The notes beneath the pieces are model-generated. The model saw nothing but the letters and a program-made list of their open reading frames with translations, was not told where the DNA came from and did not search any database. 59,108 bases of DNA from Welwitschia mirabilis. Taxonomy: Eukaryota. This document shows, piece after piece, positions 14,001 through 41,256 of the stretch. Positions within the stretch are counted from its first letter, which is position 1. Each line of letters opens with the position of its first letter. A program made the translations under genes and the position numbers. The stretch is taken from positions 6,398,147 to 6,457,254 of the forward strand of contig JBOZIK010000001.1 of assembly GCA_051453625.1 (NCBI GenBank), read 5' to 3'.

Positions 14001-17000
14001 ATTTCTTCACTACAGTATGAGTTGGACTTATCCACTTGTTGTTTAAAATAGGGTAGATGATTCCATTGTTGAGAAGTTTAATTACCTCATTTTTAATAAC
14101 TTCCCTCATAGTTGGATTTCTTCCATGTTGTGCTTCAATAGATGGTTTAGAATTTTCCTCTAGATAGATATGATATATGCAAATACTAGGGTCTATACCT
14201 CTAATGTCAGAGAGGATTCATCCTATTGGCTGTTTGTTGTTCTTTAAGAGCTTAAGCAATTTATCTTTTTTGGATGAGGTCAAGGAATAATTTATGACTA
14301 TCAAGAATTTGGAGTTATCCCCTAAGAAAGAATATTTTAGATCATAAGCAAATGTTTAAGTTCTAATCCAACTTAATTTTAGACTATAGGGCACATTTCT
14401 TATGAGTATTCTGTTTTCTAATTTTGGAGAGAGTGAGAAGTGGATTCCTAATTCTCAATAAGGATTTCAATCCTCTCTATGAATTCTACTCCTTTGTCAT
14501 TTGACAATAACTTCATAGCATTAAAGATATTTAGCTCTATGGTCATGTTGTTGAATGAGATTTTCATTAATCCATTCCTATAATTAATCAAGGCATTGGA
14601 GGTTGCTAAGAATGGTCTTTCTAATATCAAAGTTACTATTTGGTTTGATGATTTCTCCATGTATAAGATCATAAAATCTACTAGAAAGTAGCAACTACCC
14701 ATTCTAACTATGACATCCTCAATTATTTCTAGGGTATTGTAATGGAGTTATCTGCTAACTAAAATTAGAGTTTTGTGTTTTTAGTCCTTCCAAGTCTAAT
14801 GCTTTGTAAGTTTTATAAAGAAATAAGTTTACACTAGCTTTTAAATTCAACAATGCTTAGTTGAGAGTTTTGTTGCCTATGGTAATGGTAACTATTGGAC
14901 ATCAACGGTCTTTGTACTTCTATGAGAATTAGTTTTGTAGAATCACACTTGTTTACTTGGCTAAAAATATTTAGATTTAATGTTCATTCACCTTTTTATA
15001 GTGCATAAGTCCTTGAGGCATTTAGCATAGGAAGGGACCTATTTGATGGCTTCTAGAAGGGCAATGTTTATTTTAACTTCTTTGAAAATTTGTAGGACCT
15101 CTAATTGCCTTTTTATCATATTTTGCTTTTTAAGATATTGGGAAAAAGTTAATGGTTCTTTGTAAATGGGTAATAGATCTTCACTCTTATTCTTTTCTTT
15201 ATTTTTTATGGGATTCTCTTTATCCTTATTTTGTATGGATTGATTTCTAGCTCTTTCCCACTTCCAAAAAGTATAGTATTGTACTCTTCTATATGTTTTA
15301 CCCCTTTTGTAAATCTAAGTTCTTTTGAGTTTGGTTGGGAACTCATGAGGAATTTCTCTATTTCTCTTTGATTTATTAATAAAATAATGTCATTGGTGGT
15401 TTATTAGAGTTGGTTTAGGATCTATTCAAGCCTTTATTTGTTCTTATCTTTGATTTGTTTGTCCTTGTCTTTTCATGAACTTTTTGAAAATATCATCTAA
15501 CAAGTTAGACAAAGTAATTTGATGGTTTAAAGATGAAGGATAAGAATTATAAATGAGAAAAACAAATTTTTAGGCAAGAAATTTTGTTATGAGATATTTT
15601 CTTGCTTCCAAGAGAAATTTGGATGATTTTTCCAACCAAGATTATAAGTGTTTGAGTAAGGATTATTTTTAGAAATTTGTCATTATCCTATTTTTAGAAT
15701 TTTTCCATTATCTTACCATGCTTACTTGTTCGTTAACTGTGCTTTGGAATAAGGGGATAGATGGCCATTTAACAGTTTCATGAGTGTTAAAATGGAAAAT
15801 TAAACACTTAGGTTTAGTGATCATAGGTAGGGTTGAAGGTAAGGCAGTTAATGATTATAACATTTTTGCTAGTCTAACAATACTAGTTGACCTAACTAGA
15901 TGATGTAATCTTGAAAGNNNNNNNNNNCTTATAATTTTTACTACTTGGCTATTATTTATGAATAACCAATCATAAAAGACACTTATCTTTATACTTGCTT
16001 TGAAACCATGTTGGATGCATTTTAATAATACATCTTATATCTTTCTAAGGTCTGGGAGAAGGTTTTGTAATCCTTTTGTTAGTTCATAATTTCTTTCCTA
16101 AGGGCATTTGTCTCATAGCTAAGAAAGAACTTAAAGATAAAGTATTTAATTGAGTCTATTAAATTTGTAATGAAGAAGGATTTTAGGATGTACAACTAGG
16201 ATTTTAGCTTCTCTTTTAAGGAAAAAGGGAATAAAGTAAGTCTAAGTGCATCATGAGTATTAGGATAATGAGGGATATTTGATAAGACACACTCAAATTC
16301 CTTAAGGTGTAAGTAAGGATCTTTAGATTTAAGGCCATGAAAGTAGGGCAAGAGTTGAATAGTGGAAGGTTTAAACTCTAGCCTTTGGTTAACAAATAGT
16401 AGTACTATGCAAGAAGGTGTTCCTAAGCTTTGCGATTCGAGGTAATTGTGAAGGGTTTGCCTAGGTTAATTGGTGGTAGCTATGAGGGTAGCTTGCCATT
16501 TAGTCCCTTCTTAAGTAAAATAATAAGCTTGTAAGCTATTAAGCATTTCTTAATTTAATAAGATTCCATTGAAGGAATCAAGTGGGTCATTTGATTTATT
16601 TTATGATAAGGTAGTTTGATTATTTTGGTTATTTTATGCAGTTGAGGTTTGTTCTTGAGAGGCCTTACAAGCTTAGTTTTGGATTTTAATTTCTCTCATT
16701 CTTTTATGATTAGTAAAGGAGTCCATGTTATCTCAGGTTAATCTTCCTATTCTATCATGGTTATAGGTCATGTAAAAGATAGGTTTAGATGGTTGCAAGA
16801 AGATTAAAAATAATGAAAAGGAAATATTATCAATAATTTCATGTCAAAAAGGGTTCCAAGTTTAGACAGATAGATTCATCAATCGTAGACATAATGTTTA
16901 CAGCATCGAGATTATAATGAAATAAAATAGAGAAACGAATAAAATCAAATAAAATAATGAGAAAATTTTAAAGGTTTTAATCATTTACAAATGTAGCAAA

Positions 17001-18778: not shown

Positions 18779-20157
18779 TCCTCAGTAATGATGCCAAAAT
18801 CTATTTATTATTTTACAATGTCTAGATTTAAAACTAAGTTTGCACTTAGATATCATTCTTTCCTCAGGGATAACTTGGGTTTTGGTTTAGAATTTTTACA
18901 CTATTTACACTTAATGTAAGTTATAAAATTTAATAAAATAAAAGAAGAGAAAGAGATAATTTTAGAGTTGTGTTTTGGGACTTCGATTTGAGAGATGAGG
19001 GAAGCAAACTAGTTCCAAAATATTATCGATTTATTCTCAATGAATCCTTCACTCTAATGTTGTCTAATGATTTTATATAATACACTTAAAGCCATTAAAT
19101 GTTTTAGCTTAGATCATGATGACATAATATCATTTACCACATGAGTAATGATAAACTCAATTGCCATTTTTCTTCAAATCCTTAAAAAATAATAGAAAGT
19201 AAGAACTCTAAGCACTTAAAATCTATAAAATTAAAAGACTTAGATCAAGCATTTAAAATAAATTGCTCAAATGAAATAAAGCTTAATGGTTAAGATGCTA
19301 CCTAATCATTTTAATTATAATGTGACTCATGAATTAAAATCAAAAGTAGAAACTTATGTATTAAAAAAAAGAGTGCTTTACAATAATGGAAGAAAGATCT
19401 CAAAAGCACTCCTAAACAATCCTCAAAGAGTAGCTCACTCCCCTAAAAGGTTATTTTGAATGTCATTGAAATTGATGCTCTAAGGTTCTATAATTCTTTA
19501 AAATCAAAGATAATACAATAAAGGGTTCAAGGTGCTTTTATAAGGAGAGATGGTGGTGAGGGGTGATTATAAGCTTTTGGCTTATAGTGTTAGATGGATG
19601 GTTACATAATCATAACATTAGGTAAGATGATTTATCTTCTTTTCCATTTGGTAGAGATTCTTATAATAATGTCAACACTTAGATCTTGGATGCTATAATT
19701 GCTACCAACCATTATCATAGTCATGTGTTTCCATTGTCATCTTACTTAGTAATGCCAGATGTTGTTCTATGAATACTCATCATCATTGCCATGTATAATC
19801 AATGGTATAAATTAATTTTTATGTGGAATTAGATTTATCCCATAACTGCAACTATTTTAGTCCTCTATGACAAGTTATAAATGTGAGTTTTAAGGTAGTT
19901 TAGGTAAAATAATGATGGCACTAGTGGACCTGGAGAGCAGCATTGGCGTTTTAACTCTAATGATCTTAATTGTAAGTGATGTTTTTCAATTTAGCATAAG
20001 TACCCTAAAAATGTCATGGAAGACTGATAAGTCCATAATTAATGTAAAAACCAATAGAAGATGTTAGTTTATGATAAAATTATTTATATTAATATCTTCC
20101 ATTAAGATTGTTTGGTCATTTTGACTTAATTGTAATGTCAATTTTTACATGTTAACA
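18779..20157 (-). repeat. 5' LTR and PBS of the outer Athila-like element
   Basis: More diverged homologue of the two inner LTRs, starting TGTTAA at 20157. PBS-like TTTGGCATCATTACTGAGGA at 18779-18798. Confidence 0.8.
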
Positions 20158-20199
20158 CTTATATACCCATAAAGATTTTCTTTGTTTATCTACCCAATC

Positions 20200-21990
20200 A
20201 ATTTTATTTTTACTTATAATTGTAATCAATATTTTATTTAGTTACTAATTTTTTACTTTAACTTGATTATTTGTTTAGGATAATAAGATATGGATAATTT
20301 ATGGTAAATTCCAAAAGAGTCTAAAAGTTTAGAAAAGAGAAGACTTTACAAGTGAAATGAGTACTCGTATTAAAGATAAAACTTTTAAGTTCACTAGACA
20401 TATGAATGACATTTTTGAAAAGAACCTTAGAGGTAGCATGAACATTATAGTTACAAATAGCTATAACTTTAGCCCATCTAGTAAAGCAATTAATACATAT
20501 ATTGATATATTCTTTTCTAAAATAATTAGAGTTAATTTAGCATATAAAATTGATTTCCTGTATACCAAAGTGTTCTATTTCTTAAATTTACTATTATGAC
20601 ATTTATATATTTTAATTGAGCTCCTTTCTTTACTATTTATCATAATTTATTATAAAATCATATGCATTATTGAATAAAATAGATCAATAATGTTCCTATT
20701 ATAAGATCTTAATTATAGTTCTTTTTCATCTATAATAATCCTCTCCTTTCTCTTCATGAGATTATTCTAGAATGTCATGTTAATATTTTTTCTTCTATAC
20801 ATGCCCTAATGATTTCATCTGTGTAAGGTCTAAACCGCTAATGTTTATGCTGAATATAATTCTTAATTTCTCTTAGTAATATCTTATTTTCATAATAATT
20901 TAGATATTTTTGCACTTATTTGTTAACCAAAAAATTTGTAATACTTACAAACCATGGCACTACTTGTTGGTTTAACATTTATTCATCAAGAAATTTTATT
21001 CTTATATCAATTACTTCTTTATTATTAAAAAAGTCTAGTCTTGATAAATAAATAGCTTTTTAATTTTACATACCCTTTTTTTAATGATTTAAGTAAAACT
21101 ACTTAATAGGATTCCCTATTTTAGTATTTTAGAATTGGCTTCTTTTTTATTCAATAGAATCTAATAGTAGTATGGTCTACATGAACGTTGACTTCATAGC
21201 CCAAAGAATAATATATAAACTTTTTAAAAGTGAAAATAATTGAAAGCATTTTCTGTAATTTTATTGAGATGAGTTTGAGATTTTACTGTTATATGCTATA
21301 GTATCAGGTTCATTTTCATTGTCCTTTTTACTCAACAATATCTCTTAATGCATGGTTATAATGTGAAAAGATTTTTTCCAATGAGGCCCTTTTAAGATTG
21401 GTGCTTTTCATAAGAACTATTTTAAAAGGCGTATTAATGTTCTTTAATCCATTTAAATTTTGCATCTTTCTATAGTAATTGAGTTAGTGGTTTAGAATTT
21501 TAATTAAAGTTAATTATGAATATTCTATGGTATTTAACATAACCTAAAAATATATATATAAGTTCTTTTAGTTTAGTTGGAGGTTCCATTTCTTTTATAA
21601 CCTCGATTTCATTTCTATTAGATTAAATTCTCTTATTAGAAATTTTATGTGATTTCAATAATATTACATTCAATTTTCTTATCAAAAATTTTATGTTTTA
21701 GTATTGTCTCATCCTTAATCATAAGATGACTTTTAAGCCCATTAAGCTTTAACTTCATACCATTTCATTATTTTAAGACTCTACCTAACCTAAGAAGAGA
21801 TTTGTCAAAATGATCATTCTATGTGAAAACTTCATTCATGAATATTTCTACTGATTCCCAATCATATCTTATTTACTAGTCTTTAAAATATCATAGTAGT
21901 CTTACATAAGCGAAATGGTAGAATTCAAAAGGAATGGATTCTCTAATGACATGTGAAGGTGGTTTTTTCTTGGTCTTTAGAAATAATAAG
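20200..21990 (-). mobile_element. Heavily decayed Ty3/gypsy pol fragment (RT-RH-INT)
   Basis: TTFTCH..ILPFRLCK at about 21900-21965. LKGPHWKK RH-linker motif at about 21370-21395. TRWAKV integrase-like motif at about 20465-20483. Confidence 0.6.
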
Positions 21991-22156
21991 TATTTAATTA
22001 TAATCATCATATCCATTTATAAAACTATAAAATTCAAGTTCAACTATAATTAAAGGTTGATTTACAAATGAAAGAGAGAAATGGTTTTTATAAGTGATAG
22101 CATTTAGCATTCTAAAATATACAAAAACTCTCTACCTATTCCCCCTTTCACTCCTC

Positions 22157-25150
22157 TTTTTTTTTAATTTTCAAAAATAAGATCATATATTAAGAACATA
22201 GAAAATATACAACATAGCATAAAAATCAACAAAAAAACCCAAGAAAAGAATCAAAGCTAATAAGCTTAGACCAAACTAAATAAAAATAGAGAAGAGAAAA
22301 AGAAAAAAATCAAGAGATTAACCATATTAAGAGACTAGAACCATATACCATAAGTCTATACAAGTTTATCCATGTGATAAAAATAATAGATGGATCTTTG
22401 CTTCTTATTAGTAAGGACATTCTTTATGCCATTCAGTTCATTTATCTTCTTTAAATCTCCTTGAAAGTTATTCTTATTTTTATCTAGATGCCATATTAGC
22501 ATCAATCTTCTATAAGCACTTATGATTTCTTACTAAAAGGCCCTTGTTAAAATTCCTAGAATCCTATAATAATCTTTTCGCTCTCTAGCAGTCATTATTT
22601 CATCAAATTCCTGCTTCATCCCTGAATTTAAGTGAACTTTCTTCTTTATTTATTCTTCTTCATAATTCTCAAGAAAGGATTTTAAAGAGTCTGAGATTAT
22701 AAGGCTTTTTTCTTTACTTTTTTGCATTTATTAGACCTAGATTCAGGTGCTTTCCTAAGGTATCCTTGAGTCTTACTACTTTTATATACTGAGCCATTGT
22801 TACTAATGAAGATAACTTCATATGAAGAATCCCTTCCACTTATTGAATTTCTTATGTAATCCTAAGACTTCACAGGATCTCTTTGCACTTATTTACTTAT
22901 GTTAATAGGTGAAAAATCCCCTTGTGGCTCTTCCTTAGAGGAGGGGTCTTTTGAGAGAGGCTTCTTCTTCATTTTTATCCACAAGAGTAGCCTTTCATTC
23001 TTTTTAACAAGAGAACTAAGCCCTTTCTCTGCATCAAAACTAGAACATACTTCTGACCTCCATTTTATCTATTAGGTAAAACTAAAACCATGTCTTCTTT
23101 CATTTGTATAAGTTTTGCACCCTACCTTTTTCTTCTCTTCATTGACCGTGGAGTACCATGAGGTTGAGGATGAGAAGGTAATTTGAATTTTTATAGAAAT
23201 CAAGTAAATGGTAAACCAAACCTTAATGCTTTCTCCCTAGCCTTTATTTTAACTTTTTTATAAGATAGAATAGGATATTAATTCTATGTCTTTTATAAAC
23301 AATGATAGGAAAGCAAAAAAATAGTCCCTTAAACTTTAAATGATTACACTCTTGGATTAGCTACCTATCCACGAATTCTATTGCTAGATGCCATGGCTCA
23401 TGCAACTCTGACTTTTGATGTGATCCTTCATCATTCTTAGGGTCCTCCTCCTAAAGAATCTATTTGCATCTAGATACTCCACTGTTAAAGGAAATAACAA
23501 GTCTCCTTCTTTAGCAAGCCCAAGGGCTCGAGTAATTAGACTCGACGATATCTTCTATCTTCTTCTTTCAATCCTTAGCTTATCATTCACTATTACTTTA
23601 CTTATGATAAAATTTGGATCCCCATGTAGGGAGACAAGGGGATCTTACCTGATATCAATAATGCATTGCTAAAGCTTAGGATTTTCCCTAAAATTTAAAT
23701 CACTTAAGGGCTTATGATGGAAATGTTTATTCATTCTTCTTACTATTAAAATATAATTATTTAACTTTTGATACTTAAAAAAATATTATGAACTTGGGAT
23801 GATTGACTTCAAAAATAAATTAGTTTTTAACTACCTATATGTACCATATAGGAATTTCCAGGAAGTACCTTGGAATATTAGTTACTTTATCTTAGGTTCA
23901 ATCTTTAGTAAAGGCTTGCAAGAGTCCCTAACTATGTGGCATTCCCTAAGGAGATGTTTAATGGACTTTACAAGCCCATAGTTCTTACAAGTAGGGGGTA
24001 AATTAAAACATTTCTTACTTATTTTATATATTATTAATACCCTCCCTATAACTATTATCCATTTTAATACCATAAATTTACCTATAATAGAGTACTTCTA
24101 GGTGTTTTAATAGAGTGTATTTATAGTAGAACCTTTAAACTTACTTACTTACTATTAATAATTTTAACATTCTTTTCCTTAATAAGCTAGGTCTTTAAGA
24201 TATTTATCAATCTCCGTATATCCTCTATTACTTTTTCTATAGTATTATTTCCTAAGCAAGGGAGAGACTCCATTCCTCTGTAGTACTGAATCTTATGACT
24301 AACATTTCTCTTAAGCTAGAATTTTATTGGTGAGATTTTAGTAATCTTATTTGCTTTGTTTTTCTATAGGATATTGAAGTGCCAAAAGGGCACTTGATTT
24401 TATTCCACTTTCCATCTAGTGAGATGCTTTAGCTTTACTCTCCCTCTATAGAGAGCCTTTTAAAAAATAGAGATCCATTTCTTCACATCCCAATCTTTGT
24501 ACTTTATTTTTAGTAATTTTATTTAGGAGGGTTCTCCACTTGCCTCAATCTTTTTATTAAGTTCACTTCGTCTAATAATGTACTATTCTTTATGACTTAA
24601 ATACCTTAACTTCCTACTTCTATTAGCTAAGATATCTCATTTTAAGCCACTATGTGGATTTATTTCCTCCTCTTCTATCTTCCTAAATGAAGTTTTTAGT
24701 AATTTTGTTTAGGATTGTTTGGAATTTTCTTGAAATAATTCTTATTGAGGTGCTATATTTGGTAATCACTAACATAACTAAATTAACTAGGATAATTCTT
24801 CCTTTACTAGATACAAAAGATAATATTCTAACTATGACTTGTTTTTCTTATTTTCTGACTAAGAGTTTATTCTATTCCATTGAAAAATAGGTATTCCTAG
24901 GTACAAATTCTTAATATTTCCTCTTTGAAAGATTAACATTTGTTTTATCACTCTTTGTAAACACTAGCCTAAGTGTTCATAAAGTAGGCTCTACTTTTTT
25001 GCCAACTAATTGCTAGTCCTGATTCTTTTACAAAGATGTTTTACCCATTTTTGATGACTCTAATTTACTACAAATTTACTTCCACAAAGATTACTAAGTC
25101 ATCTGTGTAACGGTTATACATTATTTCCAAGCTATGAAGTATTATTTTGT
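22157..25150 (-). mobile_element. 5'-truncated L1-type LINE, copy E (divergent family): RT end, zf-RVT, accessory domain, C-terminal J-domain
   Basis: Poly(T) at 22157. YTDDLVIFV at about 25084-25110 and LYLGIP at about 24890-24906. zf-RVT-like PPTCKNYGLVKSIKHLLREC in ORF 23882-24073. J-domain at about 22385-22580. Confidence 0.85.
22385..22580 (-). pseudogene. J-domain (DnaJ) coding remnant in LINE copy E
   Basis: Manual translation: KDYYRILGILTRAF**EIISAYRRLMLIWHLDKNKNNFQGDLKKINELNGIKNVLTNKKQRSIY. Confidence 0.85.
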
Positions 25151-25358
25151 GACTTTTCATCTTGGTTATATATGCTAAGATTTGTATGCATACCATGATC
25201 GTATGCTTAGAGATACATGAAAATCCAAATGAAACCTTAATGGTGTGCTTACATTTAAAAGCAAGCTCTTTAGTATAGTAAAAATGAAGAAATATTTTAG
25301 AGAAATAAAATTTTAATTTATAAAATATTACTCATGATTTCTTGCTTTTCTGTTTCCC

Positions 25359-25376
25359 AACAAGTGCTATTAGAGC
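25359..25376 (+). other. LTR 3' end and decayed tRNA-iMet PBS
   Basis: AACA AGTGCTATTAGAGC resembles CA-AG-TGGTATCAGAGC. Confidence 0.55.
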
Positions 25377-25474
25377 TTTGGAGGAGATTTTTTAAAGCTC
25401 TTTTTAGAGTTTTTTTTAAGTATTCTTTTTATGGCTTCTTGGGCTTCTCTTTTGATCCTCTCTTTCTCTATCTA

Positions 25475-27100
25475 TTTTTTTCTTGAAAAAATTAACCATT
25501 ATATTAAATGAAAATTATTACAGAGGGGGCAAAAAGACCCTATACTAGGAGGTATAAGAAACCTAATCAACAAAAACTAGCCTATAGAATTCATATGAGC
25601 CTACTGGATATAAAGAAAATTTGGGGATAAAAACATTCCAAAATACTAAATCTAGTATAAAACAAGTATGACAACACTATGTAAGACTAGAAGGGATAAA
25701 GGATTCATATCCCCTACAATTGAAAAAGAGGTGGCCATGTTGGTGCTAAACCAAAAATCATTCCAAATCATTTGTTAAAACCTCGAAATCCTAATTCACT
25801 TCTTTGAATTCCTCTACTCTTATATATTTTCTATTAGGATGTAGTATGAGAGCCTTCTTTCAGTAACTTAACTTAATAGCATTCAATTAAGATCCATGTG
25901 AAATTCCTAGGATTAAGAAAATGAATCTTTTCAATCCATGAATTGTAGCTAGCAAGAATTCTCTTCTTGCATGGTCCATATTAGTGTCCTCATGGGGCTC
26001 TTGATTTTTGTCTTTAGAGAAGGAATCCAAATGGGATTGGGAATTTGACTTCTTATTATGATTAGAGCTATCTTCTACCTTCTGAGGTGAGGCCTCTTCG
26101 TCTTGCTCTGGATGCATATGCTCTTGTTCCTAGGCTTTGAACGATGGTTCTTCTTGAACTGCATCTTCCTATGCTGGGGATGAAATCATTTCCTCTACCT
26201 AAACTTCTTAGGGTATAGTTGCCCCTTTTCAAGACTAGGAGCTTTTTGGCTCGGTCTCCCTCTTAAGTTGATAAACCACATCATTCTTAGATCTTTTCTT
26301 CTTTTTCCCTTCTAAAAGACATCTTATCTGAAGTCCTTCACCAAGGAGGAGGGGAATTGAAGGCCTCCTTCAACCTTAGGTTCCTTGTAGCTCTTCAAAA
26401 TGCCGTGATAAGGCTTGAGTGCCTTAAAGAATATTTTCATTATAATGATTAAATAAAGAAGTGTGATAAGGTCTAAGGCCTTGAGAAAGGCAAAATGTAA
26501 CCCTTACAGCTTTCAACAATAACCAGTCTGAATGAAGTATTAGTTAATCATCTCGGCACTTAAACCCCATTAAGGTGGTAGCACCTTACATCTGGTATGA
26601 CCACTTGACAGCTTTAGGACACCTCTTAGAAGAAATAGAAGGCTTTTCACTATTCTTTGCTCTTAAGAGAGATTCTTTCCCTTATCGCGGGAATGTCCAA
26701 TAGGTAGAAAAGGGATTCTTCTATAATTGTGATTGAAATTCTTCTGAACATGGTTCTTTGTCCTCTTCATCTTCTATAAATCAAGGTAATATTAGCCTTA
26801 GGTTCTTCTTTCAGCTTATGTAAGAGTGCTCCCTAGACTAGGGCCTACATGTTATTCTAAAGGGTAGAAAACCCTTTAAATAGGCTCAAGTCTGATGGCC
26901 TAATTGTTGGCATAACCCTCATAGCTATCTTTATTTGTAAATGGTACCATTTGATCTTTCTGATGATGTTTATAGAAAATTCAAAGGGGATGTTATTAAA
27001 TATCACTTCATCATGGCTATGCCAGATCTACCATAATGTTAGGCATATCCCATCTTTTAAGCATGTCTCAAATATGTATCCCCTTTCTTTATATTATCTT
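25475..27100 (-). mobile_element. 5'-truncated J-domain LINE, copy A
   Basis: Poly(T) at 25475. LW*IWHSH post-zf-RVT motif at about 27010-27035. Accessory domain at about 26400-26930. J-domain LILGISHGS*LNAIKLSY*KKALILHPNRK..EFKEVN*DFEVLTND at about 25710-25940. Confidence 0.85.
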
Positions 27101-27109
27101 TTATCTTAT

Positions 27110-30100
27110 TTTCTATTTTTTAAGGATTTTTTTAAAAATATAAAAATATTTTTGAAAGGCCATTATTTTGAAAAGACCAACGAATTCTACAACCTTAGAC
27201 AAGATTTCATGATAATAGCATAATATGAGCAAAAATTTATGAAATATTTGAGATATATTCCTAAATTTGTGGTAATGATAAGGTAAATATTTGTGACTAG
27301 TATACATTAAAGAATTCAAAATAAAGTCAAATTATTTCAATTAAAGACTATTGTAAAGGCCTTAGAGAAGGTCAAACTTAGTAAGAAATCATGAACTATG
27401 AACAAAAATCTTAGAGAGAAAAGGAGAATGTCTCAAGATAATAGAAGAATGCAATCATGGAAGAAACCATTTAATCAAAATACAAGTATGATCATAGGAA
27501 AAGGTAAAGTAAATATGACTATAGTAAATACTAGAACAACACATCAATTATAAGAAAGAATGCAGATTCAACCAATTAGAGGAATTTGCAGGATCACTAA
27601 GAAACAATCAGTTTAAGGATCTTAAGGACGTGGGATGTTTTTTATGTCAAGGAGCTTATTATGTAAGGGGCTGTCCTAAAAGAAAGAAATAGAAAGAAAC
27701 TAGAACAAATGTTAAAAAGCTATATGCCTTAATCTCCAAGGAAAGCAGTCAACTAGAAGTAATTTTGAAAACTATAGGTACTTTATTAAATCTTCTTGTA
27801 AAAATTTATAGATTTAGGTGCATCCGATTCTTTTATTTCATACTTAATAACTAGCAAGATGTTTTCATAAATTAAGAAGATCAATCAGTTGCCAGTAGGA
27901 CTTCTAAATGGTAGTCAAATCAAAATAATAGAGAAACATCTATATGTACATTACATATTAATGGTTATAAATTCAAAGTAAAATTATTAATATTGAAATT
28001 AGTCTACTTTGATATTATTAGAGAAATGAATTTATTACAAAATAAATCTCAAATAGATTACTATCATAGTGAGGTTACAACATTAAATTTAAAAGAGAAA
28101 AGAGTGTATTTACTAGTTGTAGCAAGACTACTATCAGAAAAACTAATTAAGGGTAAGCAAATGAAAAAAGAATTTAAACATAAACAAGAATTTGAAATTA
28201 TTAAATTTTGTCTCTCTCTTCAAAGTAAGCTAAATATGTCAGATATCTAGTAATGCAGGAATTTTTATACATCGTTCCAGATGAGTTACTAGAATGTCCT
28301 CTAAAAAGAGAAGAAGATTTCAAAATAACTCTTAAATAAGGAGGAAAAAACCAATCATGAGGGCATTGTACATAATGCCTACTGTGGAGTTAGGAGAAGT
28401 AAAACTTAGTTAGCGGAACTTTTAGATAAAGAATTAATTAGACCAAGTATTTTACTAGGGGGTGCGCTAGTATTATTTGTTAAAAAGAAGGATGAAGGAT
28501 TGAAGCTATATGGGCATTATAAAATGCTAAAAAGAGTAACAATTAAAAATATTTATTCATTACTCAGAATAGATGATTTATTTGATCAACGAAATTTTTC
28601 TAAGTTTTTCTCAAAGATTGATCTCAAATCAGGTGATCATTAACTTATAATAAAAGAAGAAGATATTTTAAAAATAGCATTTCACACCAGGTATGGCCAT
28701 TATGAATTTCAAGTAGTGCCATCTGAACTCACCAATGCACCAGCTTCATTTGTAATAATTATAAATAATAATTTTTGAACATATTTAAATGAAATGTTGG
28801 TGGCATTTATTAATGATATTTTGGTGTATTCATTAACTAAGAAGGATCATGAAGAGAATTTATGAATAGTGTTAAATACATTAAGAATAAATCAATGTTA
28901 TACCAACCTTGAAAAGTGTGAATTTTGGTTAACTAACATTAAATTTATAGGGCATCTAATTTTAGAAGAAGGAATCAATGTGGATAGTAATAAAGTATAA
29001 TTAGTGGTATATTGAACCAACCCAGAATCAGTAACTATGGTAAGAAGCTTTCTTGGATTGACTAGATATTATAAAATATTTATTCCAAACTTTTTAGAAA
29101 TTGTAGTTCCTCTTACATCCTCATTGAATAAAAATTATTCCTTTAATTAGATAATATGTTTGATGAAGCACTTTAAGATTTAAAAGAGGAACTTGTATCT
29201 GCATCTATTATGAAAAATGTTAGAACCTAGGAAAATGTATATAGTTTATACTGATGCTTTTGGGGAAGGATTAAGAGTAGTATTAATTTAGGACAGAAGA
29301 GTTATTGCTTATACATCATGATAACTAAATAATCATGAAAGGAATTGTTTAGTGCATGATTTAGAACTCACTATTGTAATTCATGCACTCAAAATTTGGA
29401 GGCATTATATATATTGAGAAAAATTTAAAATTTAAATAGATAATAAAAGTCTCAAACACATTTACATTCAATCCAACTTGAATCTTAGGCAAAGGAGATG
29501 GGTGAAATTCTTGAAATATTATGACTTGACAATAAACTACCATGAAGGAAGGGCAAATAGAGTGGCTGATGTATTAAGTAGAAGAAGGCATTGTGTTAAT
29601 TGTTTAAGTGCATAAAAATATTTTTATAAAATTATTTTTGATTTATAATAAAACTTTCATTGATGCAAAAAGGTAAAAGAAGGAATTGAAGGATTTCTAG
29701 TTTTTATTAATGAATTTGTTAGTTTTCAAGATAAAATTATAATATCTAATGAAGAGCATGTGAAGCAAGTTATCTTTAAAGAATTTCATAGTACATGATA
29801 TGCTATTTACCCAAGAGTTAATAAGATGTATAAAAACATCGAAAAACATTTTTAATAACCAAGAATAAAGTTTAAAGTTGTTAAATTTGTGGCAAAAATA
29901 TATGACCTATCAACTAGTTAAAGCTGAACATCAATATTCAGCCAAAGTTTGTATCTCCATGACATTCCAAAATGGAAATGGGAAGTAGTTGATATAGATT
30001 TTACTATAGATCTATCTAAGACAAAAGAAGGTTATGATTCTATTTTTGTAGTAGTTAATCTCTTAACCAAAAGTGCATATTTTCATCTAGTGAAAACAAT

Positions 30101-33014
30101 AGATTTAATTGAAAGTATTACAAAAGTATATATAAAGAGTATAGTCAAATTGCATGAAGGACCTAGAAGAATTATTTTAGATAAAGACAGTAAGTTCAAC
30201 TCTAGATTTTAGACATCATTTTAGAAAGAATTAGAAAATAAGTTAAACTTAAGTATAGCCTTTCATCTTCAGATAGATGGTTAAAAGAAAGAACAAATCA
30301 ACTTTTGGAAGAGTTATCAAGATCAATAATATTGGCTTTTGTAGAATCTCGGATGGATCATTTAGCATTAATGTAATTGACTTAGAATATTAGCTATCAA
30401 GAATGAATAAAAGCACATTGTATAAAGCATTATATGGAAGGAAATGTAAAACACTAATAACATGATTTGATGTAGTAGATAAGAATTTAGTAAAGGTACC
30501 ATCTACTCAATATTTAGAAGAGAAAGTGAGAATGATTAGAAAAAGATTAAAGGTGGTAATGGATAGTCAAACTAAGTATGAAAATCACCAAAGAAAACAT
30601 ATAAATTTCATGAAGGAGATCATGTTTATCTTAAATGCTCATCTTTTAAAGGAGTTTTTAATTTTGGTAGAAAGGAAAAATTAGCATCAATATTTATAGG
30701 GCCTTATCAAATTATCAAAAGGATTAGATCAGTAGCTTATGAGTTAGTCTCATCACCACATCTATTTTTTTTTTTGAAAAAAGTATGTATATTAAACTAG
30801 GAAATGTACATCAAGGGGCGAAACCACCTAAGAATAATAGAATTAAACTATTCATAACAAAGAAGTAATCAACTAGCTAGAAAATGGAAACTAAAATAAC
30901 AAGACAAAATGACAAAAAACCGCCCCTCGATGACAAAGTAATAAGAAACTTGCTATTAGGTTGTAAACACTAGTAGAAATGGATAAAATAAAACATAGAG
31001 CTATGGATAGATAAGGTGAAAATGATTCTTAAAACTAGAAATTATAGAGACTCAGAATTAAATTGGAAGATCTTTGAAGGAAGAGGATTATAGTCCTCCA
31101 CAGAAAGGAAACATATTAGCATGGTTGTGTTTAAGGAGAAATCTATCCAGATCATTTGAGAGGACTTCAAATGCTTGATTTATCTTCTTAAATTCTTTAG
31201 CACATGCCGAATTTTTATCTGGATGGAGATGGAGAGCTTTCTTCCTATAGGTAAATTTTATGGAATGGGGTAGAGCTCGGTGAGAGAGACCCAGGGTAAC
31301 AAATGAGCACCTTTTCAACCCCTGAATCATTGCTAGTAGTACCTTNNNNNNNNNNNNNNNNNNNNNNNNNNNNNNNNNNNNNNNNNNNNNNNNNNNNNNN
31401 NNNNNNNNNNNNNNNNNNNNNNNNNNNNNNNNNNNNNNNNNNNNNNNNNNNNNNNNNNNNNNNNNNNNNNNNNNNNNNNNNNNNNNNNNNNNNNNNNNNN
31501 NNNNNNNNNNNNNNNNNNNNNNNNNNNNNNNNNNNNNNNNNNNNNNNNNNNNNNNNNNNNNNNNNNNNNNNNNNNNNNNNNNNNNNNNNNNNNNNNNNNN
31601 NNNNNNNNNNNNNNNNNNNNNNNNNNNNNNNNNNNNNNNNNNNNNNNNNNNNNNNNNNNNNNNNNNNNNNNNNNNNNNNNNNNNNNNNNNNNNNNNNNNN
31701 NNNNNNNNNNNNNNNNNNNNNNNNNNNNNNNNNNNNNNNNNNNNNNNNNNNNNNNNNNNNNNNNNNNNNNNNNNNNNNNNNNNNNNNNNNNNNNNNNNNN
31801 NNNNNNNNNNNNNNNNNNNNNNNNNNNNNNNNNNNNNNNNNNNNNNNNNNNNNNNNNNNNNNNNNNNNNNNNNNNNNNNNNNNNNNNNNNNNNNNNNNNN
31901 NNNNNNNNNNNNNNNNNNNNNNNNNNNNNNNNNNNNNNNNNNNNNNNNNNNNNNNNNNNNNNNNNNNNNNNNNNNNNNNNNNNNNNNNNNNNNNNNNNNN
32001 NNNNNNNNNNNNNNNNNNNNNNNNNNNNNNNNNNNNNNNNNNNNNNNNNNNNNNNNNNNNNNNNNNNNNNNNNNNNNNNNNNNNNNNNNNNNNNNNNNNN
32101 NNNNNNNNNNNNNNNNNNNNNNNNNNNNNNNNNNNNNNNNNNNNNNNNNNNNNNNNNNNNNNNNNNNNNNNNNNNNNNNNNNNNNNNNNNNNNNNNNNNN
32201 NNNNNNNNNNNNNNNNNNNNNNNNNNNNNNNNNNNNNNNNNNNNNNNNNNNNNNNNNNNNNNNNNNNNNNNNNNNNNNNNNNTAACAAATGAGCACCTTT
32301 TCAACCCCTGAATCATTGCTAGTAGTACCTTCCATCTGGATGCATTCATGTCAAGATCTTCTTGAGGTTGGAGATGAATTTCCATCAAAGATGAATTAAA
32401 ATTGAAGCTCTATGAAGAGCTAGGGCTCAAAGCTAGAGAAGGAGAGGGTTGGTTATGCCCACCATGTTCCTAAGGGTTAAGAGAAGGGTAAGATAGAGAC
32501 TGTTCTTAGGTTGGGCTAGGAGGATGTTTCTTAGAAGTATTCTGTTAAGCTGGGGATGAAGACGGTCCCTCTGAGTGACCTGGGAGTGAAGGAGCCCCCC
32601 TCTTGCTAGGGCTGGATTGAGTTGCTTCTTCTTCAGGAATAGGATTCCTATCAGAAGAGGAATGTCTTGTAGATGTTCTCTTAGGGGGGTCTGGTAAGGC
32701 TCACCACCACATCTATTAATTCTTCACAATGTTTTTCACAAATCCTTATTAAGGAAATGTTTATCTAATGAGACAATGATAATTCCTAATTAAGAAGTAC
32801 ATATTCTTTCAAGTTGTTCAACTAAAGCTTAACCAATTAACATTTTAGATCAAAAGCAAATGATACTATGAGAAAAACTATATAACTTTATAAGATTTAA
32901 TGGTTAAATGAATATATAAAAGAAGCAAATTGGGAATAAAAACAAATATTAAGTAATGGAAACCAAATATTTTGATAGGTTTCTAGGAGGATACTTCTTA
33001 AGGAGGTGAGAAAT
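27110..33014 (+). mobile_element. Decayed chromoviral Ty3/gypsy internal region (gag-AP-RT-RH-INT-chromodomain), interrupted by LINE copy B
   Basis: EFYNLRQ gag motif, knuckle remnant at about 27635 and DLGASDSFIS at about 27810. [19 protein letters not shown] motifs, and ORF 29949-30212 IPKWKWEVVDIDF. AYELV|...LHNVFHKSLLRK is split by the LINE. W..EANWE chromo-like motif at about 32900-32935 and PPT-like AAGGAGGTGAG at about 33000. Confidence 0.85.
30767..32699 (-). mobile_element. 5'-truncated J-domain LINE, copy B, with an 18-bp TSD
   Basis: TSD CTCATCACCACATCTATT (30749-30766) / CTCACCACCACATCTATT (32700-32717), and poly(T). J-domain with intact HPD in ORF 31088 onward (YRKKALHLHPDKN...[14 protein letters not shown]). 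Confidence 0.92.
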
Positions 33015-34930: not shown

Positions 34931-35639
34931 GTTAGGTTAAGTAGGCAAACATTTTATACTAGATGCTAACTCATCATATTATTGTAGTATGTTACTTAAT
35001 ATAAGATAAGGAACATTTGATTGTAGGAAACTATCATGGAGTACGAGACCATATAAGAATAATATGAAAAGCCATTATTAGAAAGTTTAGTTATTGCCCA
35101 CCATCACATGATGTTATATAAAGAAGTAGGGCCTTAATTCAAAGAAGTAAGAATGATTAAAACAAAGAAAACAAATATATTAGAAAAAGACATTTTTATT
35201 AAAGAATAACCACCATGGATAAATGAGCCCTATCATAATTATTTAAACTATTTTAAATAATAGCCCACTCCTTCTTAAACTATAAATTCTTAAGGGTGGT
35301 TGTTAAGGAAAATGGTGGTAACCTGAAATGATAATAAGAAAGGGGCGTGTTGATCAATAATTGAAGCATTTGAAAGAAGATGTAATTATTATGGACACTT
35401 CTATTATAAGTTATGGCCTTGAATTAATATCAATTTAATGATTTACTCTCTCTTTTTTGTTGCCTTTTTCTAAATTTCATTTTAATGCATGGCCCACACC
35501 ATTTCTTTAATCATCTATCATTACTCTTCTATTACAAGTTATGGATCCCACTTAGTATCTTTTGAAGTACTCATATTGCTATAGATTATATTCTTAAATA
35601 TTTGTGATGCCCCTTTTTAATCAATAAATCTTCTAAACC

Positions 35640-36867
35640 TTTTTTTTTAAAAGAAGTATATATATTAAACTAGAAAATGTACATCAGGGGGCAAAATCGC
35701 CCAAGAATAATAGTAGAACTAAACTGTTTATAATAATGAAGTAATCTACTAGTTGGTAAAGGGGAACTAAAACAGCAAGCCAAAAAGGGGCAAAACTGCC
35801 CCTCAATGACGAAGTAACAAGAAACTTCCTAGAGGGTTACAAATACTAGTAGAAACAGACAAAATAAAAATGCTAACAGACGAGGGCGAAAATGCCTCTT
35901 GAGACTAGAAATTACAGAGAACTCAGAGTTAGATGGGAGAATCCATAAAGGGAGAGGATTACAATCCTCTATAGAAAGAAAACATATTATCATGATTGTG
36001 TTCAAAGAGAAATCTATGAAAATTATCTGAGAGGACTTTAAATGCTTGATTTATTTTCTTAAATTCTTCAGCACCTACTAGATTTTTGTCTGGATGGAGG
36101 CAAAGAGCTTTCTTCTTATAAGTCAATTTTGTAGCCTAGGGTAGAGCTCGATGAGAGAGCCCTAGGGTAATAAATGGACATCTTTTCAACCTTTGAATTA
36201 TTACCAGCATCACCTCCCATCTGACTACATTCATGTTAAGAACTTCTTGAGGTTGGGGATGTATTTCCATCAAAGATGAGTCAGAAGTAGATCTCTGTGA
36301 AGAGCTAGGGCCTGAAGCTGAAGAAGGAGAGGGTTAGGCAAAACCAATTTGTTCCTAAGTGTTAAGATAAGGGTGAGTTGGAGATGGTTCTTTGACTGGG
36401 ATAAGAGGATGCTCCTCGGGAGTCTTCTATTGGATTAGCGATGAAGATGGTCCCTCTGACTGACTTAAGGACAAAGGAACCCCCTCTTTCTAGGGCTAGA
36501 TTAAGTTATCATTTCCTCAAAAATAAGGTTCCAATCATAAGAGGAACTTCTTCTAGATGTTCTCCTAGGGGGATTTGGTAAGGACAATGATAAGGAGGAG
36601 GGGGAGGATCTCTTTAGCCCAATATTCTTGTGCTGCTTTCTATAGGACCAGGATTAGTCCTAAGTACTTTGAGGAGTCCGTACATTTGAGAACTTGAATG
36701 AAAAAGTAAGGTAGATTCACCTGGCATCCTATGTTAAGAGATTTAAGAAATGTGAAATAGATACCTAAAATCTTAGAACAATTTCTTGATTGAATGAAAT
36801 ATTAGTTCATAAGCTCTATCCCAAGTCCTCATGGAGGTGGTAACGCCTTCATGCTAATGTGTTCATT
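35640..36867 (-). mobile_element. J-domain LINE, copy C (3' end; 5' part lost in gap)
   Basis: Poly(T) at 35640 and a 3' UTR homologous to copy [53 protein letters not shown] at about 35960-36180. Confidence 0.9.
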
Positions 36868-36983
36868 NNNNNNNNNNNNNNNNNNNNNNNNNNNNNNNNN
36901 NNNNNNNNNNNNNNNNNNNNNNNNNNNNNNNNNNNNNNNNNNNNNNNNNNNNNNNNNNNNNNNNNNNCTATGAAGGGAGAGGA

Positions 36984-39900
36984 TTACATTCCTCTACAGA
37001 AAAAAATCATATTACCATGGTTGTGTTTGAGGAGAAATCTACCCAGATTGCCAGAGAGAACTTCAAATGCTTGATTTATCTCCTTAAATTCTTCAGCACC
37101 TTCTGGATTTTTATCTAAATGGAGGCGAAGAGTTTTCTTCCTATAAGTTGATTTTATAGCTTGTGGTGGAGCTCTATGACAGAGTCCTAGAGTGATAAAT
37201 GGGCATCTTTTCAACCGTGCATTATTTCCAGTAGCACCTCCCCTTTGGCTGCATTCAGCTTCAGAGCTTCTTAAGATTAGGGATGAATTTGCACTGAAGA
37301 TAACTCAGAAGTGGAGCTCTGTGGAGAGCTAGGGCTGAAGCTAGAGAAGGAGAGAGTTGGACATGCCCACCTTGCTCCTGAGGATTAGGAGAAGGATGAA
37401 CTAGAGACAATTCTTATGCGGGGCTAGAAGGATGCTCCTGAAGAGTCTTCTATTGGATCAGGGATGAAGATGGTTCTTCTAAGTAACCTGGGGATGAAAG
37501 CACCCTCCTCTTGCTAGGGCTAAATTGTGCTACCATTTTCTCAGGAATAAGGTTCCTATTAGAAGAGGAACTTCTTATAGATGTTCTCCTAGGGGGATCT
37601 AGTAAGGAAGATGATAAGGAAAAGGGTGAGGGGCCTCTCTAGCCCTAGCTTCTTATGCGGCTCTCCATAGGATCAGGATTAATCCTAAGTACCTTGAAGA
37701 GTCCTTACACTTAAGAACTTGAATGAAAAAGAAAGGCAGGTTCACCTGGCATTCTAAGTCAAGAGCTTTAAAAAATGAAAAATGGATATATGAAAGCTTA
37801 GAACAATTTCCTGATTGGATGAAGTAATGATCTACAAGCTCTGCTCCAAGTCCTCATGGGGGCGGTAATGCCTTCCTACTGATGTGTCCACTGGGCAGTT
37901 TTGAAACTCCACTAGGAAAGAAATGGGGAGCTTCTCATTGGCATCTACTTCTAAATAGAATCCGCTCATCTTTCGTTGGGATTTTCAGCAGTCTGGAGAA
38001 AGATTCTTCCAAAATTTCTAGTGGAATTCTTTAAAAATTAGTGCATCCTCCTTTTCATCACCTGTAAAGGGGTCCCCACCCCACTACTTATATTTTTTCC
38101 TAAAGAGCCAGGCATCTCTCGAAGAGGCCTAAGTCAGTAGGCTTAAAAGTTGGAGTGGCTTCCATGGTGATTTTGATTTAAAAATAAGTGAGGATAATCT
38201 TTCTTGCTGTATATATAGGAAAGGATAAGGGAGCATTATTACAAATTAGATTGTTTCTGATCTGCCAGATCTGCCAGAAAGTCAGGTGAATTCCATTTAA
38301 TAAATACATATCAGGGGTGCTATAGGTTTGGTAGTACTTCATCATTATGATAATTAATTCCTTACTCTAAACACCTTGATGGAAAAGATGCTGTGCTATT
38401 TCTGGATTAGACTAGTAGATGGGATAGTTAGGATCAACTTGAATCCCCTTTTAGATAATTGATCTCTTGTTAAAATTCGCTGATGTTCCTTTAGCCAATA
38501 GAAAACTTTAATTTTTTTTAGTATATGTTCCCTCTAATACTTCTTATAACCATACTATTTGCTATACTTCTTCATAAGAATCTGCTTGGATGTTTTAGTC
38601 TGAGAAATGTTTAATTTAGTAAGTTATTAGCAAGATTTGCATAGATTCTTCCTTAGATATGATAACCTGTGATCAATTGTTTAGCTTCTATACTTCTGAT
38701 TAATTAAATCACACTAGGGTTTCCCTCATTCTTATAATCTCTTTAGGATCCTATGAGCTCCAGTGAGAATATAATCTTTAGGTTTTTGAGTCCTCCAACC
38801 TTCTTATTCCTTTGGATGGGTAATAATCTTTCATTTACAAAGATGTATTTTGTGGTGGTCTTTTTCTCCTAACTAAATAAAGTCTTTTAAGATCCTTCAA
38901 TTTTTTGTATAATATTTTTTTGGGGAGGGGACGGAGGGGGGGGGGGTGATAATAAAAGCTATATACTGGAAAGATGAGATTAAGCAGGAATTTGTGAGAC
39001 TGATTTTAGCTTTTGAGGAGAGAAAGTTGTTATGCCAAAAACTACACCTCCTTTGGATGGATTCTAAGATTTAATTCCAGGTACTTGTCTTGTGCCAATT
39101 TTGAAGAGAGATGCCCAAGTAGATATCCTGTAGGTCTCTTAAGTTTGTATTCAGAATTCAGGCAATTTTACCCCCTTTGATACATTATTTGACCAAGGTG
39201 TATATTCTTGATTTATTCCAATTAATATGAAGCCTTGTTATCTTTGCAAATGTGATCATGACATTTTTTATAGCTTTTGCTTGCTGATAAGTCACCTTGA
39301 TTATAATGATGGTATCATCTGCATAGTGATTGTTGAGATATGTTTGACTTCCATTTCTGATTTTTGTAACTCCATTGTTTCTTAAGAAACCTGTAGAGAA
39401 TTCATCACAAATAGAAAAAGGTATGGGGATAGGGGGTCCCCTTGTCTCAAACCTCTTCCCACTGAGAAAAAGTTTGATATATAGTTATTAACCTCTACAC
39501 TAAATTCAGCAGAAGCCTGCATGTCTAGCCATAGATTAATAATATCTTGAGAGAAGTCAGATTTTCTAAACATGCACCCTAAAGCTTGCTAACTAATAGA
39601 GTCATAAGCTTTAGCAATATCTAGTTTAGCATTGAGAAATGGAAATTTATATTTTTTGATAGAATAAATAATCTTATGAGTCAAAAGGATTTGGTTTTGG
39701 ATATATCTTGAGTGAATGAAGCTAGCTTACTTATCTAAAATTACATTAGGAAGCAAGAGAATGATTCAATCAACCATAATTTTTGCAAAGATTCTGTAAA
39801 TGACGTTGCAGACCCCTAAGAGTATAAAGTCCTTTGGTTTACTAGCATCCTTTTTTTGTGGTATGAGAACCACTCTAGTTCTGTTCATCTCTTTAGAAAT

Positions 39901-41256
39901 CCATCTATTATGGAAGATTTCTTACATTACATCATGGATGTTATCTTCTATGATAGAGAAGTATGATTTGAAGAGTTTGACTAGCCACTCATCAAGGCCA
40001 GGGGCTCGGTTATTTTTCATCGATCTGACTACGGTTAAGATTTCTTTTTTATTGAGGGGTTTAATCAACATGTTATTATCCTCCTTTAAAACTTTCTTGT
40101 TTTCTAGAATTAGGTTGGAGGTGATATCGTCCCACTCCCAGATTCTCTGAAGATGGGCCTACAGTTCCTTATCTATTTTCTCTTTACTTTCTATGTCTTG
40201 ACCTCCTATAGTAAGTTTTCTGATTTTGTTATCAGATCTGTGCTGGTTAGCTTACTGAAAGAAGAATCTAGTATATTTATCATCCTCTTTAAGCCACTTG
40301 ATCCTTGAGTGTTCTCTCTAATAATGTTTTTCATCATCATGTATTTCTTGGAGATCCATTAGGAACTGATATTCTTTATTTTGAAGACTGTCCTGATTAC
40401 CTTCCTCCTCCTGCCTGACTTGAATACATTTGAGTTCCTCCTTAAGTTTAGCCTTTGAGTTACACCTCTCTTATCTTTCCTTTTCCAATCTCTTATGTGA
40501 GCCTTTAAGGTATTGAGGCCTCTATACAAGAAAGTTATAGGTTGGATACTATCATAATGTACCCAAATCTTTTCCAATAGTACTCTAGATTTTGTCCAAT
40601 TGATTTAATACCATTCTATATGAAACAGAGTTTTTGAGGATGAAAACATCCCTAGTTTAAGTATAATGGAATGGTGATCCGAGGTAATCTTGTTCAGACC
40701 ACGGGCTTCGAGTGAAAGTTTAGCTAGATCCTTCCCAGCCATTACTCTGTCAATCTAACACATTATCAGCTCAGTACCTGCTCTTTTATTTGGTCATATG
40801 TATTTGCATCCAGTAATAGGGACATCTATGTGGGAGTATCTTATCAAAAAATCTTTTAGGATTGAAGCCCCCCCAGAGTTCTAGTTGTCACAACCTGATT
40901 TTTCCCAGCAATGGAGGCATTAGTTAAAGTCATACAATATTAGCCATTTAGATTTATCTACTACAGTTCTCTGTGCTTCTTCCAATATCACAACTTTAGA
41001 TAGATTGTGCTTCAGGTTGTAGATATGTGTAACATTCAATCTTCATTCTTACAAATCAAATCTGCCTCTTTTTTGGTACGACCCCAATAGTAAAAGATGT
41101 CCATTGTTTCCCCAAATTCATTTTTCCCATATCATTTTTTAAGTTTGTTTCCTGTAAGCAAAGTAAATTAATATTATTTTGATTAATCATATTTTGTAGG
41201 GTATTTTTCTTATAGGAGGACCCTAAGTCCCTACAATTCCATGAGATACAATTCAT
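36984..41256 (-). pseudogene. Decayed LINE ORF2 with C-terminal extension: APE endonuclease-RT-zf-RVT-accessory domain-S/P linker-J-domain
   Basis: EN: MNCISWNCRDLG..LCLQET and TSDH at about 40675. RT: GRGLRQGDPLSPYLF, HYADDT at about 39310-39330, YLGI at about 39115. zf-RVT: KIKVFYWLKEHQRILTRD and FWQIWQIRN at about 38250-38280. J-domain ORF at 36984-37214. Confidence 0.85.

Follow-up and report, generated by a model that had tools for sequence, protein, structure and literature searches.

Can a long interspersed nuclear element (LINE) carry a DnaJ-type J-domain as a regular part of its own 3' end and, if so, was the module gained once or twice? The question is raised by 59,108 nucleotides of the Welwitschia mirabilis genome (GenBank assembly GCA_051453625.1, contig JBOZIK010000001.1, positions 6,398,147 to 6,457,254 of the forward strand), the whole of which we call the window, where five LINE tails on the minus strand (copies A to E) each contain a J-domain. 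J-domains recruit Hsp70, and the HPD tripeptide between helices II and III is needed for Hsp70 stimulation; LINEs are known to take up further modules, among them RNase H, helicase and esterase domains. An initial annotation, made from the letters of the window, had placed copy E in a second, highly divergent LINE family with the same tail as the others. We favor a related reading, which we consider probable: an L1-like, plant-type LINE lineage whose coding region continued past the zinc region, through an accessory domain and a fast-evolving linker, into a C-terminal J-domain. Behind the J-domain, its 3' end would have consisted of a stop codon, a 3' untranslated region (UTR) of about 200–300 nt and poly(A). 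As part of the same explanation, E and A–D are best seen as diverged subfamilies of this one J-bearing lineage; the divergence reported initially was real, but a separate family is the less apt description. The evidence for the J-bearing LINE so far consists of contig depth and of pseudogene copies in a single window.

J-domain tails of five LINE copies

All five tails contain a DnaJ domain (PF00226) above the curated Pfam cut-off of 27.8 bits, as found by tblastn and Pfam (46.8 bits in copy E, 46.5 in B, 37 in D, 36.3 in C and 28.1 in A). Copies B and C are homologous for ~310 nt beyond J, up to terminal runs of A11 and A9, after which their flanks are unrelated (blastn). The last 55 nt of copy E reach a local-alignment score against copy C that a fraction of 0.0008 attains among 15,740 null windows drawn from this sequence (0.009 against B and 0.065 against A; blastn E 0.006 against C), and the distance from J to poly(A) is similar, at 270–309 nt when counted from a point at or slightly beyond the end of J. 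On the other side of the module, the accessory domain of copy E matches the alignment of A, C and D with an hhalign probability of 91% (E 1.1e-6, 79 columns). These comparisons support the view that J is integral to the LINE, lying between the accessory domain and a 3' end common to E and the A–D group. Because it is flanked by two such common parts, J is not a separate insertion, and because it lies upstream of the 3' end common to E, B and C, it is not a recent 3' transduction either. No direct repeats bracket the J segment of copy E, as they might if J were an insertion of its own, a possibility raised in the initial annotation. J is also present in copies with different 3' flanks and different 5' truncation points (E within the reverse transcriptase (RT), A after zf-RVT, B in the linker at ~32700, C at an N gap, D full length).

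Copy E is a dead, 5'-truncated L1-like LINE copy on the minus strand, extending from 22157 to about 25220. Its order is RT with YTDD, YLGIP, a weak zf-RVT, accessory domain, charged linker, DnaJ, stop, 3' UTR and A9 (Table 1); every motif quoted initially was recovered on this strand by translation and Pfam. The previously given end at 22157 held, whereas the upstream limit moved from 25150 to ~25220. Since RT homology starts at ~25214 and another repeat begins at 25225, the copy is truncated within the RT and is ~3.06 kb long, and it thereby lacks the apurinic/apyrimidinic endonuclease (APE). Upstream of 25225 lies a different and very abundant repeat, with a summed contig depth of 814 in public DNA run X1 compared with ~3.2 for the locus's own contig. 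Because of this truncation the RVT_1 match is partial and below the Pfam cut-off (29.6 bits), yet the RT aligns with residues 629–709 of the pine LINE protein P0001 (tblastn E 1.9e-5) and reads NRYTDDLVIF in the frame 24948–25331. The zf-RVT match likewise falls below its cut-off (27.5 bits), and copy D is similarly weak at the equivalent place (18.3 bits). The accessory stretch reads KSELHEPWHLAIEFVDR.LIQECNH... in the frame 23139–23567, and the most open frame of the linker differs from the frame common to the accessory domain and J. The J-domain itself reads KDYYRILGI...WHLDKNKNN...KQRSIY, with two adjacent in-frame stops inside, and the first stop past it follows 9 codons beyond its end. 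It had been called more canonical than those of the other copies; it does match the whole Pfam model, but its score equals that of copy B, and its HPD position reads HLD (CAT CTA GAT at 22482–22490). No target-site duplication was recognized at the 5' and 3' limits of the copy.

Copy D is the near full-length member and comprises APE, RT, zf-RVT, accessory domain, an S/P-rich linker and a J-domain at 37053–37193 with HLD; the N gap 36868–36967 conceals its 3' end. It matches residues 1–55, 158–668 and 670–858 of P0001 (tblastn E 3e-45), and its APE is identified by the matches to residues 1–55 and 158–268 of this protein, which carries PF03372/PF14529. Copy C spans 35640 to at least 36867, where it adjoins the N gap, and ends in an A9 run (35640–35648). 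Copy B spans about 30765–32700, with an N gap inside, a 5' cut in the linker and an A11 run at 30765–30775; its J-domain can be read for 85 codons without a stop in the standard code. Between copies B, C and D, nucleotide identity is 76–80% (blastn; C vs D 79.7% over 816 nt), and all three have a stop codon at one common position ~20 codons past J. Copy A has an A7 run at 25475–25481, and its accessory and post-zf-RVT parts extend to 27060 (26824–27060 vs copy D, tblastn E 5.7e-16); it has no blastn match to B–D, yet shows 44–49% protein identity to them. Because copy A is this different, recent duplication is not its source. As initially noted, the nucleotides of copy E bear little similarity to the other copies, with no blastn match to A, B or D below E 0.01, and its collinear protein matches to D (RT 41.8% over 55 aa, J 44.7% over 38 aa) have a joint E of 1e-10.

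Table 1. Features of the J-bearing LINE copies (positions in the window).
Feature	Positions	Strand	Basis
Copy E, terminal A9 run, poly(A) remnant	22157..22165	-	Read directly; matches position of the A7–A11 runs ending A, B and C
Copy E, 3' UTR, ~190 nt	22166..22355	-	Last ~45 nt resemble 3' ends of B and C
Copy E, first stop (TAG) past J, candidate original end of the open reading frame	22356..22358	-	Standard-code translation
Copy E, J-domain DnaJ PF00226	22386..22574	-	Pfam 46.8 bits, E 3.3e-12, model positions 1–62/63
Copy E, K/E-rich linker	22575..23138	-	Three-frame standard translation
Copy E, accessory domain	23139..23567	-	hhalign homology to pre-linker domain of A, C and D
Copy E, zf-RVT-like zinc-binding region, weak	23927..24103	-	Pfam PF13966 17.4 bits, E 0.007
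Copy E, YLGIP motif of RT (NLYLGIP)	24889..24903	-	Frame 24766–25098; collinear tblastx match to D at 24862–24918
Copy E, RT palm with YTDD	24984..25157	-	RVT_1 22.2 bits, E 1.3e-4, model positions 145–192
Copy E, approximate 5' truncation point inside RT	25158..25220	-	RT homology starts ~25214; depth jump from 25225
Copy A, J-domain, HPN	25767..25913	-	Pfam 28.1 bits
Copy B, J-domain, HPD intact	31142..31297	-	Pfam 46.5 bits
Copy C, J-domain, HPD intact	36013..36168	-	Pfam 36.3 bits
Copy D, near full-length L1-like LINE	36969..41256	-	tblastn to P0001 E 3e-45; RVT_1 47.5 bits, DnaJ 37 bits

The five J-bearing tails lie on one strand within about 16–19 kb (22157–41256). Copy C immediately follows copy D on its downstream side, with a 100-N gap between them, and ~255 nt separate the poly(A) of copy A from copy E downstream of it. 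Such clustering could reflect chance (1 in 16 for strand alone), a tendency to insert close to earlier copies, or an effect of the assembly. A piece of an abundant repeat (depth 814 and 232 in X1 vs ~3.2) occupies positions 25225–25506, between copy E's 5' end and copy A's A-run; many contigs break at 25230–25272, and in other copies of the repeat the poly-T goes on past 25469.

Selection on the J-domain

Codon comparisons point to constraint on the J-domain. Among copies B, C and D its ratio of nonsynonymous to synonymous rates (dN/dS) is 0.26–0.35, with synonymous differences of 33–39% and nonsynonymous differences of 12–14% (Fisher p 0.0005, 0.012 and 0.0006 for the three pairs), whereas the adjacent linker of the same copies gives 0.60–0.89 (p 0.32, 0.87 and 0.11). 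In each pair, J has a lower nonsynonymous rate than the linker (p 0.04, 0.001 and 0.001). Because of this difference between J and its neighboring linker, the comparison shows that J was under purifying selection in the active ancestors, at least in the B/C/D lineage. The HPD motif is kept in B (CAT CCA GAT) and C (CAT CCA GAC), and reads HLD in E (CTA) and D (TTA) and HPN in A (AAT); these changes are all C>T or G>A, and the deviations fit the decay of a once-intact motif. In addition, J stays recognizable by Pfam across subfamilies whose linkers no longer align. Together with the shared 3' end and the homologous accessory domain, a dN/dS of ~0.3 bears out the initial suggestion that J is an old, selected part of a LINE rather than a one-off passenger.

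A similar profile is seen in two public DNA runs, X1 and X2, in which 1,696 and 2,475 contigs matched the window at ≥80% likeness (1,308 and 1,930 of them under 90% alike). At this threshold, contig depth in X1 was 82–165 over the RT, 42–46 over the accessory domain, 54 over J and 7–10 over the linker, compared with ~3.2 for the locus's own contig, and X2 shows the same pattern. This is the expectation for many old copies with domains that evolve more slowly than linkers. Although X1 and X2 are labeled as two organisms, both contain a near-identical locus (3 differences in 1,127 bases in X2), and the labels may denote the same or very close taxa. Two RNA runs gave 25 and 6 reads at ≥80% likeness, almost all less than 90% alike, and are uninformative on expression.

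Alternatives and the number of acquisitions

Several observations weigh against an integral and selected J-domain gained once. All five copies are dead and none is intact; the HPD motif of copy E is broken; and the five tails, for which no target-site duplication was found, share a strand and a stretch of 16 kb, which limits the independence of the five insertions. The dN/dS values derive from 68–69 codons in three non-independent pairs under a biased mutation spectrum, with the linker as internal control. Short contigs give no linkage of RT and J on one molecule elsewhere in the genome, word-based searches of longer proteins with the C tail, the D RT and the E J-domain returned no protein outside the window that combines RT and J, and RT occurred in 0 of the 20 long or multi-domain proteins checked from a J profile search. 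In none of the copies does one frame run unbroken from the accessory domain into J, and each needs one or two frameshifts: the two parts share a frame in C, D and E, where a large part of the linker has its most open frame elsewhere, while the linker runs straight into J in B and needs one shift in A. An N gap (31346–32282) hides the linker-to-J junction of copy B, so that reading through the junction is interrupted even in the sole copy with a straight run. J may thus be the C-terminus of ORF2, or it may sit in a separate, shifted or overlapping open reading frame (ORF). The clustering, and the limits of copy E without a detectable target-site duplication, would suit a host J-protein gene or pseudogene lying by chance next to LINE fragments. 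We regard this as very improbable, given that 5 of 5 tails have the same order, the strand of the RT and a similar distance to the A-run, with differing flanks beyond, and that direct repeats around the J segment of copy E are absent. A passive passenger has more in its favor: LINEs can transduce flanking sequence, so a host DnaJ fragment could have been transduced or template-switched once onto a LINE 3' end and carried along without function, the frame between accessory domain and J is broken in every copy, and the J-bearing tails are known from genomic sequence. It is still unlikely in view of the contrast in dN/dS between J and the linker of the same copies, the persistence of a recognizable J where linkers are unalignable, the HPD kept in B and C with transitions only in the other three copies, and the depth peak over J among diverged genomic copies.

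Two independent captures, in which the E lineage and the A–D lineage each took a host J-domain at the end of their coding region, had been left open initially. The J-domains themselves give this some encouragement: J of copy E is ~37–41% identical to those of B, C and D over 41 aa (18.5–28.5 bits, lower for A), and each group is closer to generic DnaJ (53–55 bits; copy E J reaches 54.7 bits with a generic DnaJ protein, compared with 28.5 for copy D J). Free maximum-likelihood (ML) trees that include database J proteins place E apart from an A–D clade with SH-aLRT (a likelihood-ratio branch test) support of 98–99, and the linkers differ in composition (K/E-rich in E, S/P-rich in B–D, acidic in A). 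Short, decayed domains of 60 aa are, however, expected to lie nearer the family consensus than each other. When the five LINE J-domains were constrained to one clade, the tree gained 10.8 log-likelihood units over the quick free tree and was not rejected (approximately unbiased (AU) test, p-AU 0.69; 45 rows, including 15 top-scoring matches each to E and to B plus 12 matches drawn at random). The J tree alone cannot prove a single clade, and long-branch attraction of decayed sequences could favor the constrained tree. The architecture is the stronger argument and favors a single acquisition, because homologous flanking parts hold J in the same order in E and A–D: it stands between the homologous accessory domain and the terminal ~45 nt of the 3' end, at a similar distance from poly(A). 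Two captures are therefore doubtful, and J was most likely acquired once, before E and A–D split. A different kind of alternative is that the organism reads TAA/TAG as Gln and that copy E is a largely intact gene. Translation with table 6 opens many frames of 250–640 codons, the longest of 642 codons (22616–24544), whereas under the standard code a single frame of 120 aa is the sole ORF of at least 120 aa outside N gaps. When copy D is aligned to P0001 under the standard code, 6 of its 20 in-frame stops stand opposite Trp (three TAG, two TAA and one TGA) and 0 of 20 opposite Gln; in-frame TGA is found inside conserved domains too, and its scarcity reflects mere rarity (1.4% of trinucleotides in the window). 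The transposable elements are of plant type, with a conifer LINE as best database match. A ciliate-type code is thus ruled out, and the 642-codon frame is partly spurious as a single ORF, the conserved accessory domain sitting in a different frame; an intact copy E under an altered code is hardly credible.

P0001 (27% identity) is the only database relative found for the copy D RT, and it is without DnaJ. A J profile search of 1.84 billion representatives returned 56,219 matches at E ≤ 0.001, of which the best 150 look like ordinary J proteins; the best database matches of the LINE J-domains are ordinary J proteins at 36–54% identity, and a search of the ESM Atlas with the copy B J-domain returned DnaJ clusters only. 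Neither the profile search nor the J trees identified a nearest host donor. One database protein, P0082 (498 aa), contains two identical-looking J-domains on either side of a zinc-binding domain of retroelement integrase (Integrase_H2C2, 33 bits); it has no relationship to the LINE tails and probably represents a chimeric gene model. A full-text literature search found no paper describing a LINE-encoded J-domain, and DnaJ has no occurrence in the main text of PMC12062965.

Where the accessory domain passes into the linker, B, C and D keep two overlapping frames open (37458–37758 and 32449–32700, minus strand). They read ...PYQIPLGEHL... and ...DPPRRTS...SSPSKRG..., with an indel between C and D at the proline/C-run. 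An overlapping or frameshifted ORF for the J part may be one reading of these two frames.

Possible role, known systems and decay

If J was functional in active ancestors, its HPD loop would, by established J-domain biochemistry, have docked host Hsp70 and triggered ATP hydrolysis. Hsp70 loaded in this way onto the LINE protein or ribonucleoprotein (RNP) might have served folding, RNP assembly, remodeling or disassembly, or escape from aggregation. Polyomavirus T antigens offer a parallel in mechanism only, since a viral J-domain there recruits Hsc70: in both cases a selfish replicator would encode its own J-domain to harness host Hsp70, although the polyomavirus is a DNA virus with an N-terminal J-domain and all other parts are unrelated. 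Chaperones have been reported among the proteins co-purifying with human L1 RNPs (PMC3753637). We tentatively hypothesize, at somewhat less than even confidence, that a clade of seed-plant L1-type elements hard-wired Hsp70 recruitment through one gain of a C-terminal J-domain that was kept under selection during the diversification of E and A–D. If true, this would be the first non-LTR retrotransposon (LTR, long terminal repeat) known to encode a co-chaperone, and would serve as a natural experiment in which the supply of chaperones is shown to limit LINE RNP assembly or integration. A bolder form of the hypothesis would have J reached by frameshifting or encoded in an overlapping downstream ORF, given the frame that the accessory domain and J, but not the linker, have in common in C, D and E. 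An element with its own Hsp70 recruiter would make chaperone limitation of retrotransposition directly testable.

The accessory domain could not be assigned to a family. A Pfam scan gave 0 families for 4 of 4 pieces and a PDB profile search 0 matches, both at E ≤ 10; the hhalign probability against Escherichia coli RNase HI was 0.07%; and an AlphaFold2 model from a four-row alignment was unusable (mean predicted local distance difference test (pLDDT) 44.4). We take its motifs to be suggestive of RNase H, a reading backed by none of the tools. The position of the domain is where plant Ta11-type L1 elements carry RNase H: in these, ORF2 ends C-terminally in an archaeal-like RNase H, and a CCHC motif stands upstream of it (PMC5348765). 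The elements described here resemble the Ta11 type in an APE and RT homologous to a conifer LINE, a zinc region followed by one domain, poly(A) and 5'-truncated copies. They differ in that the domain after zf-RVT is not demonstrable as RNase H and in that the coding region continues via a linker into a J-domain, which PMC5348765 does not describe.

Other retrotransposons have gained modules in comparable ways. R1 LINEs are reported to have a viral-type helicase domain gained at the C-terminus of ORF2 (PMC4686597), and some retrotransposons to carry a DNA methyltransferase (PMC5890265). The likeness lies in the modular gain of an extra domain by the polyprotein, which in R1 is also at the C-terminus of ORF2, whereas the module here is a co-chaperone J-domain and no nucleic-acid enzyme or DNA methyltransferase. 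Compared with cellular DnaJ/Hsp40 proteins, copy E matches nearly the full domain model and B and C retain HPD, but DnaJ_C and the zinc-finger client-binding part are lacking, and J is fused to, or placed after, a LINE polyprotein.

Copies A–E are pseudogenes in a plant-type genome that is GC-poor and CpG-depleted; C>T/G>A decay of the deamination type has filled them with stops. The window has ~29% G+C, a CpG observed/expected ratio of 0.17 and nine N gaps. Among the alignable tails B, C and D, 197 singleton differences comprise 60 C>T, 35 G>A, 29 T>C, 28 A>G and 45 transversions, so that C>T plus G>A account for 95 of the 197 vs 57 for T>C plus A>G. Decay of the repeat-induced point mutation (RIP) type is ruled out ((CpA+TpG)/(ApC+GpT) = 1.27). 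Owing to C>T/G>A decay, the frames of the J-bearing copies are visible only by reading through TAA/TAG, and for the same reason the ORF track overlooked copy E, as had been stated initially; the asterisks in its translation are real stop codons. The practical lesson is that ORF-based tracks do not see the domain architectures of old transposable elements where a plant genome is GC-poor and deamination-decayed. Reading through stops can bring these architectures back, because decay here has acted mostly through substitutions rather than indels.

A Ty3/gypsy-type pol at 27519–30300 on the plus strand stays in one frame over 927 codons with stops ignored, which indicates that decay here was mostly by substitution. 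Pfam recognizes its protease (RVP_2, 25.6 bits), RT (RVT_1, 58.7 bits) and RT_RNaseH (78.7 bits), integrase-like sequence follows, and its conserved motifs show changes of the P>L, P>S, C>Y and G>E type, that is, substitution decay without indels. The 3' flank of copy E (19500–22156, minus strand) has RT_RNaseH matches of LTR-retrotransposon type at ~18 bits, below the cut-off; this flank is itself a genomic repeat, with a depth of 88 at 21982–22122 in X1, and has no tblastn match to the Ty3/gypsy frame 27519–28778; copy E probably sits inside an older LTR element. Read-through translations also revealed gag-like retrotransposon text on the minus strand at 7097–8296 (LFHFSLKEKSRSWLYILKP) and 15928–16732 (LTLFPFSLKEKLKSQLYILKS), and the two are mutually similar.

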